Shown here: one piece after another, positions 3,626 to 40,871 of the stretch
Numbering within the stretch: position 1 is the first letter of the stretch
Layout: the number at the start of each line of letters is the position of its first letter
Source of the DNA: Naegleria gruberi
Lineage: Eukaryota
DNA length: 64,000 nt
Direction: 5' to 3' (one strand)
NCBI GenBank assembly: GCA_000004985.1
Contig: GG738887.1
Notes under the pieces: model-generated
What the model was told of the DNA's origin: nothing
The model's database searches: none
Seen by the model: only the letters and a program-made list of their open reading frames with translations
Position numbers and translations under genes: made by a program

Positions 3626-4191
3626 TTAATGTTGGGTCTTGATGCTCATAAGGGACTTGAATTGAGCATATTCGAGTTTGTTTCCTTCGTAGGAAATTCC
3701 ATTTTCCTTTGCAATTTTAGGAACATCAAAATTCAAGTCAAATCTTTCACAGAAAGATCTCATTTCATTGATAGAGATGGTTCCAGTCTTGTTTGGATTA
3801 CCTCCGAGAGCAATGAATGCATCCAAAATGTCTTCTTCATTGGCTTCATCATCCTTACTAGCACTATATCTTTGTAAAAGTTCCATAAATAAATAAAATT
3901 CAATCTTGTCTGGATTAAAAGAATCGGAATGTCTTGAAGAACTCAATTCATCATCATTACTATCCTTTCCAGCATTGTGAGCCTTGCTCAGAGCATCCAA
4001 CAATTTTAAAATTTCATCCAAGGAAATTTCATACCCAAGTTCTTTTAAAAATCTAACAATGTCTCGGAATTGTTCTATCACTTACCTATAAATGCTTCTT
4101 TAGCATCCTTAGCATCAATATATCCCAAATCATGATAATCATAGGATGTATAAACTTCTCTAATCCTTTCCACGTCTTGTTCAGTGTACAT
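3626..4191 (-). CDS. EF-hand calcium-binding protein (calmodulin/myosin-light-chain-like), 2 exons
   Basis: exon 1 4191..4086 (MYTEQDVERIREVYTSYDYHDLGYIDAKDAKEAFI-; EF loop DYHDLGYIDAKD); intron 4085..4042 (GTAAGT...AG, 44 nt, in frame); exon 2 4041..3626 with a second EF loop 'GGNPNKTGTISINE'. Confidence 0.55.
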
Positions 4192-8699: not shown

Positions 8700-8968
8700 T
8701 TATCATTTCACGGATTATTTAATTTCCTCTTTTTTAATTAATAAATTATCATATGAGATTGTAATTGAGTTCTGGAATGACACTAATATAGTATTTCTAC
8801 AAAATAATGGTTGTATTGTTGTTCAACTTTGACATCCTTACTTAAGGTAATCTGTCATAAACTTGAGACCTTCTTCGTTAGCCTTATTTCTTTGCCTATG
8901 TCTTCCAGTATTGTTTATTGGTTTATGGTTATAAATACTATTCTTCTTAATTAAAAATGCTAAATGAT

Positions 8969-9054
8969 CCGATGAGACGGAATCGAACCGCCGACCACAG
9001 GATGACAGTGTTCCTTGCTACAGTCCCATGCTCTACCAGCTGAGCTATCATCGG
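8969..9054 (-). tRNA. tRNA-Tyr(GUA): tRNA-Tyr (GUA) with a 14-nt intron after position 37
   Basis: minus strand CCGATGATAGCTCAGCTGGTAGAGCATGGGACTGTAG[caaggaacactgtc]ATCCTGTGGTCGGCGGTTCGATTCCGTCTCATCGG; cloverleaf with 7-bp acceptor stem, GTA anticodon and TTCGATTCC T-loop; the intron sits at the canonical eukaryotic tRNA-Tyr position; a T-run (Pol III terminator) lies downstream. Confidence 0.88.
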
Positions 9055-16637: not shown

Positions 16638-19600
16638 ATGTCTGAAAAGCCTGTTGTTGGAGACTATAGCGTCGAGTATTCCAAGTCGAACCGATCAACA
16701 TGTAAATTAACCAACAAAACCATCAAGAAGGACGCGCTTCGTATTGGTAAAATTGTACAGTCGCAATCTTTTGATGGTACCTATCCGATATGGTACAATT
16801 TCGAAGGTAGGTTTTTAACTTGGTGATGATCATCAACATGTTATAATTGTTGCTTTTTTGATCGTACAATATCTTGTTTGGATCACTCTTTATTGCTTTT
16901 ATGTATGATGATATTTGTGTGAATACCTATGTTGTATTATCTTTTATCTTGTGTGGAAAATTAAATCATTTGATGATGATGAATGTGGACGAAACAATCA
17001 CCGATACAGATTGGGCAAAGGATAAGAAACTTGTTAAAGAATTCCAAACAAAATGCAAGAAGGTTCATGGTTTGTCCAAGATTCGTCTCGAAGATCAAGA
17101 ACGTATCAAGAAATTGATGGGACAATCAAGTGATGATGCTAATGGTGCTAGTGATGATAATCTCTCCGAAGAACAAAAGCAAAAGAAGAAGGAATTTGAA
17201 GAGGAAAACAAAAAGATTTGGGAAATTAAAGACAAACTTAAGAAGTTAAAGTCTTTACCATTACTGAGATCAATGCTCTCAGAGAATGATCAAATTGAAA
17301 AGGGAGGTGAAGATTTATTAATTGATAGATGTGCTCTTGGATTATTGTTTGGTAACTTGCCTGCTTGTCCAAATGATGAATGTGAAGATGGATATATGAC
17401 CTTCGCAGGTGGTGTATTTAAATGTAAGTAGTTTTTCACCATTTTCAAAATGTGGTGTTAAAATATCAAATTCTAATACATGTTATCTTCAGGTCATGGT
17501 AAATTACCTTGGGCAAAGTGTGACTACACATTATCTGTTGATGATGCATATGAAAAGGCAAAAGACTGGATTATTCCAGATGATATTGCCGAATCTAAAC
17601 AATTTGAAGATTTTGAATTTAAAAAACACAAAAAATGTAACTTTGCTTTGGATACAACTGTTCGTGCACCTGTTGCCTCTTCAAGTGAAGAAAAGAAAGA
17701 GGAAGAAGAGGAAAAGGAAGAAATTGATCCAGAAAAGGAAAAATTACCACTTGGTAATTTCAAGATTGCTTGCTCTGGTAAATTGAGTATGAAACAAAGT
17801 GAATTGCAAGAAATTATTGAAGAAAATGGTGCTACATTCTTGAAAGATGTTTCAAGTGGTTGTACTCACTTGGTTTGCTCAGAAAGTGAATATGATAAGG
17901 AAACAACCAAAGTTAAAAAAGCCAAGAAACAAGGCGTTTTAATTGTTGATGAAGATTGGATTCACATGTCTGTTGAGAAGGAAAGAAAATTGACAGAAGA
18001 TGAAACAAAGGAATATGTACATTACAATCCTCAAGATAAAAAGAGAAAAAAGGAAGAAACTGAAGAAGAAGAAGGTGAAGGACAAGCAGTTCCAAAGAAG
18101 AAGAAGGTAACCATTAAAGGAAGAGCTGCAGTTGATGAAGATTGTGAAGATGCTGATGTTTTACATGTCTATGAAAAGGGTGATGATATTTACTCTGTAC
18201 ATTTGAACTTGACAGATTTATCTACTGGTGCTAATTCTTACTATGTTGTTCAACTTTTGGAACATGATACTAGAAAGAATTATTATGTATTTAGAAAATG
18301 GGGTAGATTGAATACAAATATTGGTTCAAACAAACTCACTGAATATGGATCTGATTTATCATCTGCCAAATCAGAATTTGAAAATACTTATTATGACAAG
18401 ACTGGTAATTATTGGTATGATAGACACAATTTCCAAAAGAGACCTGGTAAATTCTTACCAATTGATGTTGACTATGGTTCAGATGAAACTGATTTGGATA
18501 AGTTACAATCAGAAATGAAGAAGGATTATAAGGGTAAATTGCATCCAGAAATTGCCAACTTGGTCAAATTAATCTTTGACGTTCAAACAATGAAGCAAAC
18601 ATTGAAAGAAATTGAAATTGATACTGAAAAGTTACCTCTTGGTAAATTGAAAAAGTCACACATTTCAAAGGGTTATGAAGTGTTAACAGAAATTCAAAAT
18701 CTCATTAAGAGTGTTCGTGAAAAGGAGAAGGAAGCAGGTGTATTTATGGAAGATGATCCACCAGCAACATCTTCAGTTGATACAACCACAACTGCCACTC
18801 CTTCATCATCAGTTGATGCCACTTCTGCTCCAGTTGATAGTTCAAGTGCTACTCCTTCTGCAACTCCTTCATCATCAGCTGATGTCGCTTCAAGTGCACC
18901 TGCTGCTGTTGTTGAAAAACCTAAGAAACCTAAAACTTCAATTCATCAACAATTCAAACAACAATTCCTCACCCTCTCCAACAAGTTCTATACCATCATT
19001 CCAACTTCAAATCCAGAAATCATTGATGATGAAGATGCTTTGAGTGCAAAGGTTAAGATGATTGAAGCTTTACAAGAAATGGAAATTGCCACCTCACTCT
19101 TGAAGAAGGATGACGAAAGTGAAGAAGATCCATTAGATGGATACTATAAGAAGTTAAAGACTCACCTCGAACCACTCGGCAAGGATAGTGACATGTTCAA
19201 GATGGTTGACACTTATTTGCAAAATACTCACGCCTCTACCCATCGTGAATTCTCACTTGAATTATTGGATGCCTTTGAAGTTGACCGTGAAGGAGAAGGT
19301 GAAAGATTTAAGAAGTATGAGGATTTACACAATCGTAGATTATTGTGGCACGGAAGTAGAGTTTCAAACTTTTGTGGTATCCTTTCTCAAGGTTTGAGAA
19401 TTGCTCCTCCAGAAGCTCCAGTTACAGGGTAAGTCAACTTCGTTCAATATTCTTTTTTAACAATTTTTCTATCCATATTTGTTGTAACTATGTAACATTT
19501 TTATTATTTCAATTTTATAGTTATATGTGTAAGTAGTTTAATTATTTCACTCATTTGTTTAAAACTAAATTGTTAACAGTTGGTAAGGGTATTTACTTTG

Positions 19601-19962
19601 CTGACATGTCTTCCAAGTCTGCCAATTATTGTCGTACTAGTCCAGATCAAAGTACTGGTATTTTACTTTTGTGTGATGTTGCTTGTGGTAATTTATATGA
19701 ACGTTTACAAGCTGACTATATTGAAAAGTTGCCGCGGGGTTATCACTGTTGTTTTGGTCATGGTAGAACTGAACCAAATAATACCATGTGTCAATATATC
19801 CTTGATGGTAAGGTTATGGTGCCACTTGGTACACCATCTGCCTCATTGTTGTACAATAGACATACCTCATTGTTGTACAATGAATTTATTGTCTATGATG
19901 TTGATCAAGTCCAGATTCGTTACTTGCTCAAAGTTAAATTCAATTATGACAGACGTTATTAA
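16638..19962 (+). CDS. poly(ADP-ribose) polymerase, PARP1-like (degenerate PARP Zn finger, PADR1 zinc ribbon, BRCT, WGR, helical regulatory and catalytic domains), ≥5 exons
   Basis: exons 16638..16806, 17010..17423, 17493..19428, 19521..19528, 19580..19962; PADR1 'ALGLLFGNLPACPNDECEDGYMTFAGGVFKC|HGKLPWAKC'; BRCT; WGR 'WGRLNTNIGSNKL'; catalytic '[50 protein letters not shown]'; ends '...KFNYDRRY*'; the first intron boundary is uncertain. Confidence 0.85.
19521..19528 (+). CDS. 8-nt microexon of the PARP gene (TTATATGT) encoding the Tyr-Met of the catalytic 'TGYMFGKG' motif
   Basis: flanked by acceptor ttttatAG and donor GTAAGTag; with the 2-nt carry-over it restores ...[21 protein letters not shown], which matches PARP1 residue for residue; no direct splice gives an in-frame product. 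Confidence 0.6.
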
Positions 19963-32726: not shown

Positions 32727-35700
32727 ATGTGTAAGTAATTAACAACCCTAACATCAGTCATTAATCACCCAATAATCAAATAATCCATCCTGTTGATTAG
32801 CAAGTGATATTAAAGGAACATTGACCAAGATTAAAGGTGGTAGTGTTCAAAATCGTTTGGCAGCCATTGGTGCTTTATTTTCTTTAGCATCAGATGATGA
32901 TATTAGAGAGGAAATTAGAAATATGGGAGGAATTGGTACTCTTGTTGGATGTTTAGAGGATAATTCTGATCCACGTATTCCTAGACAAGCCTGTGGTGCT
33001 CTCTTGTAAGTTTTTTATTACCAACTAATTTACTTACATAATAATTATTTAATATTATAATTATAATAATTATTAATTGAATGATGATTGTTTATTTATA
33101 TTATATCTATCTAGAAACATGGCAAATGATGATCAATGTAGAGAGGAAATTCGTGATTATGGTGGTGTTGAATTGATGCTCAAGCTTATTGAAAATCAAT
33201 TCAAAGATGCAACCAGTGTTGAATATGCTACAGGTGCCTTGCTAAATTTGAGCTCTGACGATGACACTAGAGAAATGGTTAGAGAAGCTGATGGTGCTCG
33301 TATTTTGGCTCGTTGCTTGTCTGATGCTCCAAGTGAAGAATCTAGAAGAAACTCTGTTGGTGCCATTGCTCAATTGTGCTTTGATCAAGAATTTACTAAA
33401 CAATTGGTTTCTGGAGATGCTTTGAAACACATTGTTGAATGTTTAAACTCAAGTGATGAAGAAACCAGAAACAGGACCTCAGGTTGTATCTGGAATTTGA
33501 GTGTTACTGCTGATGAAACTAGAGAAGCTTTGGCTCGTGAAGGTTGTTTGGAAAGTTTGGTCAATTTATTGCAAAAAAGTGAGGATGTTAATGAAGATCC
33601 TGAAACTGTTGGTAATTGTGTAATGTAAGTTTTATATAATTATATAGAAATATTCTAATTTTAACATTTTACAATAATTACTATTGCACTACATTATATT
33701 GTCAAATGTATGATGTTTAAACAGGTGTCTTTCAATTTTAAGTTCAAATGACATGGTTGCTGAAACTTTACGTGAAATGGACGGATGTTTCGAAATGATT
33801 ATTAAATTATTGAGTAATTCTGATTCTACTATTGCTCAAAATGCTGCGGCTGCCGTTTGGAATTTGGCTCACAATGATGATAACAAGAAGGTTTTGGCCA
33901 ATTTGGACACAATGGCATCTTTGATTCCACTTTTGGATTCTTTCAACTCTGCTTCCGATTGGGAAGCTTTGGAAAAAGTTTTGGGTGCTGTTTTAACTAG
34001 CAGTACCAATGACAATATGGCTGATCAATTCCGTGAAAATTCTGGATTTGGTCCACTCAAGACAATCATTGAAGGCAAGGTTGATCCAACCACTATTCAA
34101 AATGACCAACATAAGAAGTGTGTATTATATGGTATTATTGGATTTGCCGTTTTGGCTTACAATGATAAGAATAAGGATGAGATTCGTGAATGTGGAGCTA
34201 TTGCTGACTTGATTGAATTACTTTCTTTGGAGTATGATGACGATTTACTTGAAAAGGTTACTGCAGCCATTTTGAACTTGACTCACAATATTGAAAATAG
34301 AACAGCCATTCGTAAGCTTGACGGTATTTCAGTTCTTATTGAGCTTCTCTACCATCACAATGAAACCATCTCAATGAACTCTGCTGGTTGTTTGTGGAAT
34401 TTGAGTAACGACGAGGCTTGTAAAGCAGTTATTCGATCTTTGGGTGGTTTAAAGCCATTGTTAGCTTTGATTGGAGGTGGCAAGGTTGAACCACGTTCAA
34501 AGAAGGACAGAAAGATTTCAAAGGAAGCTATTGAAGCTGCCAATCGTCTTGTTGAAGGTGAAGAAGAAGAATCTGAACCAGTTCCAGAAGAAAAATTCGA
34601 TGTTATGGAATTTGTTGAAGACATCTTCAATCCAAAGAAGGACTTTGAAAAGTTGGACGATGAGGATGGATCTTCTGATAAGAAGAAACCTCAAGTCAAC
34701 AGAAATGGTGAACAAAGAACCACTACTGGTGCTGGTGTTGAATATGGTGAAGAAACTGGCATGACTCCTGCCAAGATCATTGTTGGTGCTGCTCGTATCG
34801 ATATTAAGAACAGAAGAAAGGTTGCAGAGGCCGAACGTGAAAAGAAGGAGGCAGAAGAAAGAGAAGCCAGAAGAAAGGAACGTGAAGAAAGAGAACGTGA
34901 AAGAAAACGTAAGGAAGAAGAAGAAAAGAAGAGAAAGGAAGAGGAGGAAAAGAAGAGACAAAAGGAAGAGGAGGAGAGAAAGAAGAAACTTGAAGCCGAA
35001 ATGAAAAAGAAGGCTGAAGAGGAAGCTGAAAAGGAAAGACTCCGTTTGCTTGCTGAAGCTGAACAAACAAAGAATCAACTTAAGGAAGCTTTCAATGCCA
35101 AACACAAGAGAAAGGGTGTTAAGGATGAAGACATTGATTGGGATGAAATCTATGAAGATGGATTCACTCCTTCTGCTACTAAGGATGAAGCCAAGGACAA
35201 GTTGGAAGGTCAAATTGATGAATATTCCAATCTCATTGACCCATTCAATAATAATGGTGTTTATGATCAACTCACTCCTGATGATATCAAATTCATTGAA
35301 AGTGAAATTGAAAGAGCTAAACGTTTCCTCGCTGAAAATCCAAATGCTACCAAGGAACAAATTGATGATGCCAGAAGAGAACTTGATGCCAATGTCAAAC
35401 CAATCATTGAAAGAGCTAAGGCCAGAAAGGTTCTTGGCGACATGACCACCAGCATCAGAGATCGTCTCTTGAATGACTCTGAATTGTTGAACAATTTGAC
35501 TCCTGAAGAAAGAAAGGAATTAGAACAAGCTGTTGCTGAAATGGAACAATGGTTACGTGACCATCCAGATGCTACCAAGGAAGAAATTGAAGAAAAGGAA
35601 CGTGAATTGCTTGCCAAGATTAAGCCAATTTTGGCTCGTGCTGCTACCAGAAATGATTTGGAAAATTATGCTCATGATTTGAGAAAGAAGGCAGCCAATG

Positions 35701-38700
35701 AAGATGATGACATTGATTTTGACTTGTTGGGTGATGAAGATAAGGGTACTTTCCATGATGCTATCAAGGAAATTGAAGATTTCTTACTTGAACATCCAAA
35801 TGCCTCTGCTCAAGATATTGAGGACAAGAAGGATGAAGTCAAGAGGCGCATTGATCCAATCATTAAGAAGGCCAAGGCCAAGAAGGATCTCTTACAATAT
35901 GCTGCTGACATGAGAGATAGATTGAACAATGATCATGATTTGAAGAAGAGACTCACTCCAGAAGAAAAGAGATCTATTGAAACTGCTTTGGATGACTTTG
36001 ACAAGTGGATTAAAAACCATCCAAATGCTGATGCTGAAAGCTTGAACAAGCAAAAACAAAGACTCAAACAAAAGTTGGATCCAATCGTTTCCAGAGCTGA
36101 TGCTCACAACAACTTGGACGAATACATCAACAGAACAAGAAAGAGAATTGATGATAATGATGATTTGGGTGAATTGTTGGATGATGCTGACAAGAGAACT
36201 CTTCAAAAGGAATTGAAGGATGCTGAAGAATTCTTGAAGAAGGTCGAAAAGGAACCAGTCAAATTCACTGCTGAAGAAATCGACAACAAGAAGAAGGAAA
36301 TCAAGGAAAAGCTTGCCCCTCTTATTGAAAAGGCTGAAAAGAGAAGAGAACTCAAGGACTATGCCAGCCAAATTCGTGACATTGCAAGCAATGATAATGA
36401 ACTTGCTGAATTTATCACACCAAAGGAAAGAAAGTTGCTCGAAAATGAGGCTAAGGAACTTTCTGACTGGGTAAAAAACAATAAGAAGGCCACTCCTCAA
36501 CAAGTTGAAGAGAGAAGAAAGAAGGCTGAAGAAAAGGTTCAACCAATCTTGGATAATGCCAATCAAAGAAAGGCTCTCAAGGAAACTGTTCAAAGATTGA
36601 GAGATCGTTTGAATGATGACAAGTATGTCGAAAAGTTGAAACCAGAAGAAAAGAAGGCTCTCAAGGATGCTGCTGATGAATTGGCCAACTTTTTGGCTAA
36701 GAATCCAGAAGCTTCTGCCAAGGAAATTGAACAACAAAGAGAAAAGACCAATGAAAAGGTTCTTCCAATCTTGGACAGAGTTAGAGAACAAATCTCACTC
36801 GAAAATCATGTTAACAATGTTAGAGATAAGGTTAGAGATGATCCAGCATTGAACAAATTCTTATCTGATAAGGAGAAGAAGGCCATTGAAAAGGCTGCTC
36901 AAGATGTTGAAAAAGTCCTTGCTAGTAAACCATCCATTAAGGATACCAAGAAGGCAAGAGAAGATTTCAATGATGCTGTCAAGCCTCTCCTTGAAAATGC
37001 TGCTGCTAGATCTAAACTTGCAATCTATGGTGATAAGGTTTTGGATGATGTCTTGTCTGATCCACATACAAGTGATAAGGATAAGGAAGCTGTCAAGAAG
37101 GCAAAGAAGGAATTGATTGATGACTTTTTGGCTAAGAATCCAGATGCCACTAAGGAACAACTTGATCAACAAAGAAAGAAGTTCGATGAAGCTGTTGCTC
37201 CAATCACTGATCGTATTAATAAGAAGAAGGAATTGGAAAGAAAGATCAATGATATCAAGAGAAAGTTGGATGATCCAGATTCTGCAATCTGTTCAAAGGC
37301 AACCCCAGAAGAAAGACAATATTTGGCCTCAAAGGTTGATGAATTGTCTAAATTCTTGAAGGAAAATCCAAATGCCTCTGCTAAACAATTGGAAGAAAAG
37401 ATTAACGAATTCAACTCTCAAGTCGAACCAATTGCCAAGACATGCGAAAAGAGAGACCAATTAGAAAAGCAAGCAAACACTATCAGAGACAGATTAGTTG
37501 ATCCAAATGACGATCTCAACAAGTATATGAGTGAATCTGAGAAGACTCAACTCAGAGACGCTACCAATGAAGCTCTTCGTTTCTTGGAAAAGAATCCATC
37601 TTGCTCATCCTCAGAAGTTGCTCAAGCCAAGAAGAAATTGGACGATAAGACCAAGGAATTGGTTGAAAAGGCCAAGGCTAAGGGTGGTTTGTATAAGAGA
37701 GCTGGTGGACTTCTTTCTGATGTTAACAATTATGGTGAAGGCGGTCTTGGAGGTAAATTGAACAGTGTTGAAAAGAGCGAAATTGCTGATAAATGCAATG
37801 ATATCATCAATCACTTGAACAAGAATCCAAACCTCTCAACCAAGCAAATCAAGGAAAAGGAGAAGGAACTCAACAAGGTTGTTGCTCCAATTCTTGATAA
37901 GATCAGAGAAAGAGACAATCTCCGTGAAATTATTAATGGTATTCGTGATCAAATCTTCAATATTGATGATAAACTTGAAGATGACAAGTCAGATGCTTCC
38001 TCTGATTCTGACAGTGATCGTGAAGATTTGGAAGATTTATTGGATGGACCAATCAAGAAGTCTAAGGCTCAAAGAGATGAAAAGGGTAAGACCGACAAGT
38101 TGGGTAACTTCTTGTCCAACGAGGAAAAGAAGAAGATTGACGAAACTACCAAACAAGCATTGCAAGCTATTGATTCTGATCCAAATCTTTCAGTCTCTGA
38201 CTTGAAGGAACAAGCAAGAAACCTCAAGCAAGACACTGAAAATATCTTGAAGGCTGCCAAGACCAGATCTGATCTCAACGACTATTTGAATAACATTCGT
38301 GAACAAGTCAAGGATGAAGATGGTATGATTGCTAATCACTTGAGTGAAAAGGATAAGAAGTTGATTGATGAAACTATTAATGAAGCACTCAACTGGTTGA
38401 ATAAGGAAGGTGCTAATGCTACACCAGAAGCCGTTGAAAAGAAGAAGAAACAAGTTATGGACAAGATTGATCCAGTCATTCGTAATGCCAAGCAAAGAGG
38501 TGAATTGGAATCAATTGCTAACAAGGTTAAGCAACGTTTAGAAGATGATGTTGATTTGACATCAGCTCTCAGTGAAAAGGACAAGAAGGCATTACATGAT
38601 GAAGTTCAAGAAATTCTTGATTTCTTGAAGAAGAATCCTAATGCTACTCCTGAACAAATTCAACAAAAGAAGAAGCAATTCGAGGAAAGAGTTCTTCCAA

Positions 38701-40871
38701 TTCTTGAAAAGGCTGAAGCCAGAAACAAGTTGAAGGATTTGACCAATGAACTCCGTACCAGACTCTATGATGAAGATGATCTTGGAAACAAGCTCAGTGA
38801 AGCTGATAAGAAGAAGGTTGAAAAGTTGATTGATGAAGCTGTTGACTTTTTGGAAACTAATCCAGATGCTTCAAAGGAAAAGATTGATCAAAAGAGACAT
38901 GCTTTGGAATCCAATGTCATGCCAATTATCAAGAAGGCTGAAAAGGCCAAGAAGGCTGCTGACTATGCATCTGCAATTAGAGACAATTTGGAAAATGATT
39001 CTCTCCTTAAGGATGCTCTCACTCAAGAAGAAAAGAAATTGATTGATACTCACACCAAGGATTTGCTTGACTGGATTGAAAAGAATGCAGCCACTGCTAC
39101 TTCTAATGAAATTAGTGATAAGGAAAGACAATGTAAGGAAAAGGTTGATCCAATCCTCAATAAGGCCAAGGCAAGAAATGCTCTCAAGGAAGATATTGAA
39201 AAGTTGTATGAAAAGTTGAATGATGAAAACAAGCACAAGTTCTCTGAAAAGGAAAAGAAGGCCATTCTCGATGAAATCAATAAGGCCAATGACTACCTTG
39301 ATACAGTTGCCAAGAATCCAAATACCACTTCTGATGATATTGAAAAGAAGAGAAACGAATTGAAGATTGCCACTCAACCATTGGTTCAAAAGGCCAAACA
39401 AAGAAAGGAATTGCAAGAATATGCTGCAGGTGTTCGTGATAAACTCCAAAATGATAGCAAGCTCACCTCTCGTATGACTCCAGAAGAAAAGAAGACCCTT
39501 GATAATGCTGCTAAGGAAGCTCTTGACTGGGTCAACAAACATGGTGATGATGCCTCATTGAATGATTTGAAGGAAAAGTTGCGTCAAACTAAAGCTAAGG
39601 TTGAAGCTACTATGCAACGTGCTGAGAAACATCAAAAGTTGGAAGATATGGCCAACAAGATCAAGGATAAGGTTGAAGGTGATTTGAAGGACTGCATGTC
39701 TTCAGAAGAAAAGAAGACTGTTCTCCAAGAAGTTCAAAAGACTCTCGATTGGTTGAACAAGAATAAGACTGCTCCAATTGGTGAAGTTGAAGCTCAACAA
39801 AGAGCTCTCGAAAATAAGATTGCTCCAATTATGGAAAAGGCTCAAACCAAGAAGGATTTGGCTGACTTTGCTAATACTGTTAGAGACAGATTGAAGAATG
39901 ATAAGGAACTTGCCAGTCTCTTGTCAGCTGAAGAAAAGAAGGCCATCAATGATGCTGTCCAAGAAACTCTTGATTGGTTGAACAAGAATCCAAATGCTTC
40001 TCTTGCTGAGTTGAAGGATAGAAAGAAGAAATTGGAAGATGTTGTTAACAATGTTCTTGGTGATAAGGAAGCTGCTGAAAACTTTAGAAATTATGCTGAA
40101 AAGGTTTTGGAAGTCTTGAAGAAGAATAAGCAAGTTCAAAAGGACTTGACTGATGAAGAAAAGCGTGCCATTCAAGACTTTGCTGAAGAAGCCAGAGATT
40201 GGTTATTAGAAAATCCAAATGCCACTGCCAGACAAATCAGAATGGAAAAGAAGAGATTGGAAGAAAAGTTGGGCAAGATTAAGAAATTCAAATTTGAAAT
40301 TCCTGCCACTCACTACATTGGTAACTTCTCAGAACGTACCAGATGGGGTGATGACAGTAAGCGTACCAAAGATATCAACTCATTATTGGGTTCATACATT
40401 AAGAAGGGTGACAAGGTTGCTACTACTCCTGTCAAGCCAACAGCCACCTCTACTCCAACAAAGACTCCACAAAGAAATTTGAAACCAGTTGCCACTCCAA
40501 AGAAGCTCACCAAGGAAGAAGAAGAAGAAATGAAATTGTTCGATACCATGAAGTTCAATAAGGGTGGTTTGATTCAAGCTAAATTACAAAGTCTCATGGG
40601 AAGTGTTGGCTCTGCAAGTGCTGTCAGCGGTTCAGTTGTTGAAGAAGAAGAAGAACCAGCTGTTGTTTATCCATACTCTGAATTGAAGAATAACAAGCAA
40701 AAGAAGTATCCATCAGGTATTGACATTAACAAGAGAGAACAATACTTGAGCAATGATGAATTCCAACAAATTTTCAAGATGTCTCGTGATGAATTCAAAA
40801 ACTTGCCAGAATTCAGACAAACCAAATTGAAGAGAGATGCTGAATTATTTGCCTATGCTTATGAACTTTAA
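32727..40871 (+). CDS. giant (~2,600 aa) multidomain protein: armadillo repeats, then an E/K/R-rich single-alpha-helix segment, then ~22 tandem Hsp70-lid-like helical repeats, then a C-terminal villin headpiece (VHP) domain
   Basis: exons 32727..32730 (ATG+T), 32801..33005, 33115..33624, 33725..40871 (introns 70, 109 and 100 nt, all GTAAGT...AG with continuous frames); ARM units (GALLNLSSDDD..., AVWNLAHNDDN...); charged block 34795..35060; repeats 35190..40290; C-terminus 'YLSNDEFQQIFKMSRDEFKNLPEFRQTKLKRDAELF' is a VHP. Confidence 0.7.
35190..40290 (+). repeat. in-frame tandem array of ~22 diverged ~72-75-aa coding repeats (Hsp70 SBD-alpha lid-like unit)
   Basis: each unit follows ...[R/K]xxLxxYAxxxRxxLxxDxxLxxxLxxEEKKxIxxAxxExxxWLxxNPNA[ST]xxExxxKxKELxxxxxPIxxKA...; it aligns column by column with human HSPA8 '[72 protein letters not shown]'. 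Confidence 0.7.
40731..40868 (+). other. villin-headpiece (VHP) F-actin-binding domain at the C-terminus of the giant protein
   Basis: 'LSNDEFQQIFKMSRDEFKNLPEFRQTKLKRDAELF' versus the villin HP '[35 protein letters not shown]'. Confidence 0.75.

Follow-up and report, generated by a model that had tools for sequence, protein, structure and literature searches.

The window analyzed here is a 64,000-nt stretch of contig GG738887.1 from Naegleria gruberi, and at positions 16638–19962 its plus strand carries a gene with a full model of five exons and 969 amino acids. Exon 1 (16638..16806), with the start ATG at 16638, encodes a PARP-type zinc finger. After intron 1 (16807..17009; 203 nt, GTAGGT...ACAG), the end of this zinc finger and the PADR1_N domain follow in exon 2 (17010..17423). 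Intron 2 (17424..17492; 69 nt, GTAAGTAG...TCAG) leads into exon 3 (17493..19428), which comprises the BRCT, WGR, and PARP_reg domains together with the N-terminal half of the PARP catalytic domain, in which the H of LLWHGSR lies. The positions of introns 1 and 2 are shared with Naegleria fowleri, as judged from breaks between high-scoring segment pairs; for example, in the locus from N. fowleri one such break falls at residue 56/57, which is where exons 1 and 2 meet.

The 3′ part of the gene, again on the plus strand, is divided more finely. Exon 3 ends with ...APPEAPVT plus the bases GG (codons GCT CCA GTT ACA GG|GTAAGT), leaving a Gly codon in phase 2 at 19428. The corresponding open reading frame (ORF), which spans 17480–19432 and encodes 650 amino acids, ends with ...APPEAPVTG before a stop that lies within GTAAGT. 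Intron 3 (19429..19520; 92 nt) has the donor AGG|GTAAGT and the acceptor TTTTATAG; read at 19380–19620, its first letters are GTAAGTCAAC and its last letters CAATTTTATAG, and its interior holds TAAC branch-point-like motifs and a T-rich tract. The microexon TTATATGT (19521..19528; 8 nt) lies within AG|TTATATGT|GTAAGT at 19519–19534 and completes the Gly codon with its first base, continues with one codon each for Tyr and Met, and ends on the base that opens a Phe codon. Intron 4 (19529..19579; 51 nt) has the donor TGT|GTAAGTAG, the 8-mer of which is the same as that of intron 2, an ACTAAA motif, and the acceptor GTTAACAG; it begins with GTAAGTAGTT and closes with AAATTGTTAACAG, ending in TTAACAG. 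Exon 5 (19580..19962) opens with TTGGTAAGGGTATTTACTTTGCTGACATG, the TT of which completes the Phe codon, and continues through LYNEFIVY and NYDRRY to the stop TAA at 19960–19962.

On the basis of its domain order and catalytic triad (H-Y-E), the predicted product is a PARP1-type poly(ADP-ribose) polymerase of clade 1B, in which a Naegleria protein had already been placed (Citarelli et al., 2010, PMC2964712). In the 969-aa model, Pfam identifies zf-PARP (13–92), PADR1_N (113–171), BRCT (280–351), WGR (428–508), PARP_reg, and PARP (761–963). This is the order expected of the PARP1 class, with one zf-PARP domain detected by Pfam, compared with two plus Zn3 in human PARP1. The PARP_reg match begins at residue 543 and falls into two stretches because it is split by a low-complexity insert rich in Ser, Thr, Ala, and Pro (TSSVDTTTTATPSSSVDATSAPVDSSSATPSATPSSSADV...; window 18690–18830) inside the regulatory domain. 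The length of this insert differs by 19 aa between strain NEG-M and a closely related strain assembled from a metagenome (650-aa versus 631-aa ORF, the latter called P0001). Compared with human catalytic-domain chains, the motifs LLWHGSR, GIYFAD, SKSANYC, and LYNEFIVY are all kept, so that the triad and the nicotinamide contacts G863, S904, and Y907 are intact.

Two simple ways of reading across the 151 nt between exons 3 and 5 could be discarded at once. A direct splice from 19428 to 19580 yields GGT TGG TAA, i.e., Gly-Trp followed by an immediate stop, in agreement with the first-pass annotation of this DNA, which had stated that no in-frame direct splice exists; retention of the intron is ruled out by the stop straight after Gly. 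The three-piece join reads GG-T TAT ATG T-TT GGT AAG, or G Y M F G K, and inclusion of the 8 nt restores both the frame and the conserved residues. An enumeration covered every path between 19400 and 19600 that removes one or two introns of the GT/GC-AG type, each at least 25 nt long, and keeps the frame open. There are 12 such paths; the one through the microexon alone restores the motif around GYMF, and no other has GTAAGT at both donors. The other 11 were rejected because their donors (GTTACA, GC, or GTGTAA) or acceptors (AAG) are weak and conserved residues are lost or replaced. The Pfam PARP score is 239.5 bits with the microexon, compared with 214.0, 203.3, and 222.2 bits for three alternative models.

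Chance is a poor account of this arrangement. The dipeptide YM can be read at one place only in the 151-nt interval across the three plus-strand frames, and when the interval was shuffled 200,000 times with its composition preserved, AG-N-TAY-ATG-T-GT turned up in 8 of the shuffled sequences (~4e-5), the analytic expectation being ~7e-5. Both flanking introns are canonical and of plausible length (92 and 51 nt), and the gene's two introns further upstream, which have homology support, measure 203 and 69 nt, with the donors GTAGGT and GTAAGT. The proposal that an 8-nt exon divides the 151-nt gap into two GT-AG introns is upheld by the sole motif-restoring path among 12, the top Pfam score, and an exact match to the deposited protein XP_002673922.1; of the two lengths originally given for these introns, 92 nt is right and 50 nt needs correction to 51 nt (92 + 8 + 51 = 151). 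At the level of sequence, the layout of an 8-nt PARP1 microexon flanked by two canonical GT-AG introns is confirmed. The 30-mer CCAGTTACAGGTTATATGTTTGGTAAGGGT would mark the microexon-containing transcript and CCAGTTACAGGTTGGTAAGG a skipped one; public RNA-seq data for N. gruberi have been deposited under PRJEB23822 (PMC6142364).

The identity of the encoded residues was established by comparison with the human enzyme. A phmmer search against human PARP1 catalytic-domain chains gave an alignment that is gap-free from LLWHGSR through the microexon motif (E ~3e-92), bearing out the view that the microexon supplies the Tyr-Met of the PARP1 motif. Human numbering was taken from the PDB alignment and checked against the triad (H of LLWHGSR, 862; Y of GIYFAD, 896; E of LYNEY, 988). 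On this scale, the Tyr-Met of the microexon aligns with Y889-M890, and the whole GYMF corresponds to G888-Y889-M890-F891. The first-pass annotation had equated the Tyr with human Y907; that residue is instead the Y of SANYC, and its counterpart lies in the last exon, as do those of Y896, S904, and E988. The label "catalytic" also had to be abandoned, since the microexon Tyr-Met falls outside the triad of H862, Y896, and E988. In human PARP1, Y889 and M890 belong to the D-loop (Gly876-Gly894), which forms a lid over the pocket for NAD+ and inhibitors; Y889 engages in pi-stacking with talazoparib, and a bridging water sits on the M890 backbone (PMC4157409). The two residues of the N. gruberi microexon are the counterparts of these and are better termed D-loop lid residues, and the description of the microexon as carrying part of the NAD+-binding motif is a fair one (PMC4157409). 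Across the 83 related loci with a contiguous match over the motif, none departs from G, Y, M, or F at any of the four positions (83 of 83). In N. gruberi itself, the counterparts of Y896 and Y907 are present.

The reading that best fits these observations, to which we assign a probability of roughly 0.92, is that the PARP1-type gene at 16638–19962 (+) consists of five exons encoding 969 aa and includes a constitutive 8-nt exon between canonical introns of 92 and 51 nt. A single intron using weaker sites is very improbable by comparison. For example, the donor GTTACA at 19421 and the acceptor AAGTAG at 19536 (19420^19537) would give a D-loop reading ...APPEAP-FNYFTHLFKTKLLTV-GKGIYF without VTGYMF, and related versions would give APPEAP-GIYF or VTG-I-GKG. 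The frame stays open along such paths, and their products still score 203–222 bits with Pfam PARP, above threshold. However, these scores lie 17–36 bits below that of the microexon model, the paths depend on non-consensus donors or acceptors while leaving two perfect GTAAGT donors unused, and they remove or swap residues invariant in 83 of 83 relatives. Moreover, they do not reproduce the deposited protein, and both N. fowleri and Naegleria lovaniensis retain the VTGYMF-containing motif that is missing from the single-intron product. Even less credible is a decaying or non-functional PARP copy in which the microexon is a coincidence made plausible by homology-guided annotation. Although annotation is by itself no transcript evidence and the sister species lack the microexon, all five exons are open with every domain and the H-Y-E triad intact, the exact pattern has a chance of ~4e-5 per interval, a second strain with 99.1% identity retains the structure, and introns 1 and 2 sit at the same positions in N. 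fowleri.

A third alternative accepts the microexon but proposes that it is alternatively skipped rather than purely constitutive, giving a truncated or NMD-targeted transcript and serving as an on/off switch of PARP1 output. Very short exons are inherently liable to skipping, and the 19428-to-19580 join produces an immediate TAA stop. Exon skipping in general is also on record in N. gruberi transcriptomes (PMC6142364). Against this, the strong consensus signals in both flanking introns favor efficient inclusion, and intron retention was commoner than exon skipping in all but one of the eukaryotic species studied, non-animals included (PMC6142364). We consider such a switch unlikely, and regulated skipping that feeds into NMD would be no more than a possibility.

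Inclusion of the microexon keeps the frame and adds Tyr-Met to the D-loop that covers the NAD+ pocket, whereas skipping gives Gly-Trp-stop and costs the enzyme the second half of its catalytic domain, including the counterparts of Y896, S904, Y907, and E988. Genes in the window are densely packed, their exons long and their introns short. Introns 3 and 4 each carry a full set of signals (GTAAGT donor, TAAC/CTAA-like branch motif, YAG acceptor), which makes separate recognition of each by intron definition likely. Their excision is probably sequential: with just 8 nt separating the 3′ splice site of intron 3 from the 5′ splice site of intron 4, both sites are sterically unlikely to be occupied at once.

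An exact-sequence look-up showed that the 969-aa model is identical, from residue 1 to the last, to XP_002673922.1 (EFC41178.1; UniProt D2VPS6, D2VPS6_NAEGR), titled poly(ADP-ribose) synthetase of Naegleria gruberi strain NEG-M. This match assigns the window to NEG-M. The deposited model must include the microexon because only the microexon path gives GYMF with canonical sites, and we infer its coordinates within XP_002673922.1 from this single canonical path. The microexon is therefore already in the reference annotation, and finding it again is correct and ordinary. As the deposited model may come from a homology-guided predictor, agreement with it is no independent proof of splicing. The protein collections searched contained no spliced transcript of N. 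gruberi PARP1, and literature searches returned nothing on a PARP microexon, nothing on Naegleria microexons, and no match for PRJEB11402. That no paper on the N. gruberi PARP1 microexon was found does not, however, make the microexon new. The modestly new part is the within-genus comparison, in which the intron positions of the D-loop, as read from genomic sequence, differ among three Naegleria species.

The closest relative sampled, a metagenome contig from ENA, matches the window at 99.1% identity. Over window positions 19380–19620, all 241 compared bases are identical, spanning both introns and the microexon. The presence of the same DNA in this independent assembly shows that the microexon is no assembly artifact; on account of the overall closeness (99.1%), the identical introns are uninformative on constraint. 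On the same contig, prokaryote-style gene calls split the gene at the microexon (P0001 ends with ...APVTG and P0121 begins with MSSKS), illustrating that ORF calling of this kind on metagenomes breaks PARP1 precisely at the microexon.

The comparison with two further species is more revealing. One locus (L002) belongs to N. fowleri: the XRN ORF on it is identical to CAG4719344.1, and the PARP ORF falls into one cluster with XP_044568007.1, a protein with the same domain architecture and length (969 aa) as that of N. gruberi. Here, the sequence reads ...ACT GGA TAC ATG TTT GGT AAG GGT ATT TAC TTT|gtaagt...(283 nt)...acag|GCT GAC ATG. A second locus (L087), from N. lovaniensis (XP_044545095.1), shows the same arrangement with an intron of 69 nt. 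The 283-nt intron of N. fowleri (L002 3582–3864) contains direct repeats, with cacttttctcacttggctttctcttgaatttt.atca... present twice; given these repeats and the 69-nt counterpart in N. lovaniensis, it appears to have been enlarged by internal duplication. The microexon is absent from both species, in which the GYMF motif is contiguous with a long exon. Both have a single phase-0 intron after IYF, at a site 20 nt downstream of the second of the N. gruberi introns flanking the microexon, and N. gruberi has no intron there. A conserved microexon would recur at the equivalent position in related species, and neither of these two shows it. The two species share the protein motif through GYMF with N. 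gruberi and lack the microexon, so conservation backs the protein motif and not the exon itself. As the D-loop intron positions differ among the three species, the microexon is, on the genomic sequences compared, specific to the N. gruberi lineage among sampled Naegleria, and intron positions in the loop turn over.

More distant loci offer a partial view of this turnover. In an AT-rich metagenome relative (L004; 60–62% identical), one intron interrupts the same Gly codon in phase 1 (ACAG|gtaagt...tag|GATACATG), and the second intron, after Met, is absent. In a further relative, an intron lies immediately upstream of VTG. A metagenome scan yielded 80 loci, nearly all of them contiguous across the motif; as these represent transcripts or intronless genes, they are usable for residue conservation only and not for intron positions. 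ORFs starting with MFGKG were considered as a sign of a common upstream intron, an idea that was dropped because several come from lineages in which in-frame TAA/TAG codons shorten the ORF calls. One tentative scenario, which we regard as possible rather than probable, is the recent birth of the microexon within Naegleria: the N. gruberi lineage would have lost the IYF intron, and two introns 28 and 20 nt upstream would then have been acquired, or retained and shifted, enclosing 8 nt of what had been an uninterrupted exon. Under this scenario, the intron might have slid by 1 nt relative to the Gly-codon intron of the AT-rich relative. With respect to an introner-like or duplicated origin, a short-word blastn search of the four introns against the window returned short chance matches only, and GGTAAGT is not significantly enriched in the window (8 observed versus 4.2 expected).

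Several of the PARP loci from metagenomes and Logan display a further feature, namely in-frame TAA or TAG at conserved Glu positions (L006, at 3975–3995; L033; L046; L054; L056). The invariant Glu of APPEAP is encoded by TAA in L006 and L056 and by TAG in L033 and L046, and the catalytic Glu of LYNE is encoded by TAG in L054. These codons suggest that stop codons have been reassigned to Glu in the source organisms. Stop-to-Glu reassignment is reported from peritrich ciliates. These codons also shorten standard-code ORF calls at "MFGKG".

The neighborhood of the gene also varies. Immediately 3′ of PARP1 in N. gruberi lies an anoctamin/TMC-like gene (window 20168–21175, minus strand; as called on the near-identical contig), and in N. 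fowleri (L002 4297–7725, minus strand) and N. lovaniensis the corresponding gene encodes an XRN 5′–3′ exonuclease; the differing downstream genes mark a synteny break directly 3′ of PARP1. Elsewhere in the window, a TRAP1/HSP90-like ORF shows identities of 81% to N. fowleri, 78% to Willaertia magna, and 59% to Acrasis kona, which bears on the taxon of the window. An Rfam search of the window found one tRNA and nothing else (8968–9054, minus strand; 54.8 bits, 87 nt); it has no ARAGORN call and is probably an intron-containing tRNA gene. Finally, positions 33753–40871 (+) hold a single ORF of 2,372 aa; the GC content is markedly raised there (0.38–0.39) and GC skew and AT skew are both strongly positive, pointing to a putative gene for a large repetitive or low-complexity protein.

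Two classes of microexons provide a frame for the N. gruberi example. In plants, constitutive ultra-short microexons (≤15 nt) occur in conserved protein domains (Yu et al., 2022, PMC8831610; MEPDB, PMC12409088). Like these, the N. gruberi microexon is an internal coding exon of a few nucleotides between canonical introns and is needed for the frame and for conserved residues. Plant microexons are frequently missed by annotation, whereas this one is already annotated; they are backed by RNA-seq and often conserved across land plants, whereas the one described here, from a heterolobosean amoeba, is known from sequence and is not conserved within its genus. The neuronal microexons of animals measure 3–27 nt and are regulated by SRRM4 (PMC13174390). 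They share with the N. gruberi microexon a very short length and sterically constrained recognition. However, the inclusion of animal microexons is alternative and regulated by tissue, usually leaves the frame intact, and depends on a dedicated enhancer protein as well as on exon definition and long introns. In contrast, the N. gruberi microexon is presumably constitutive and lies between introns of 92 and 51 nt and, at 8 nt, would shift the frame if skipped, unlike the usual animal microexon.

For the biology of N. gruberi, the PARP1 enzyme, if functional, requires the microexon, and as the reference already contains it, little changes in the gene model. The case does demonstrate that an 8-nt exon can be recovered from the letters of the DNA alone. 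Should the recent birth of the microexon prove true, it would represent a datable de novo origin through intron turnover in an intron-poor excavate. More generally, the microexon could offer a small natural test of how short exons originate and are spliced where introns are short.
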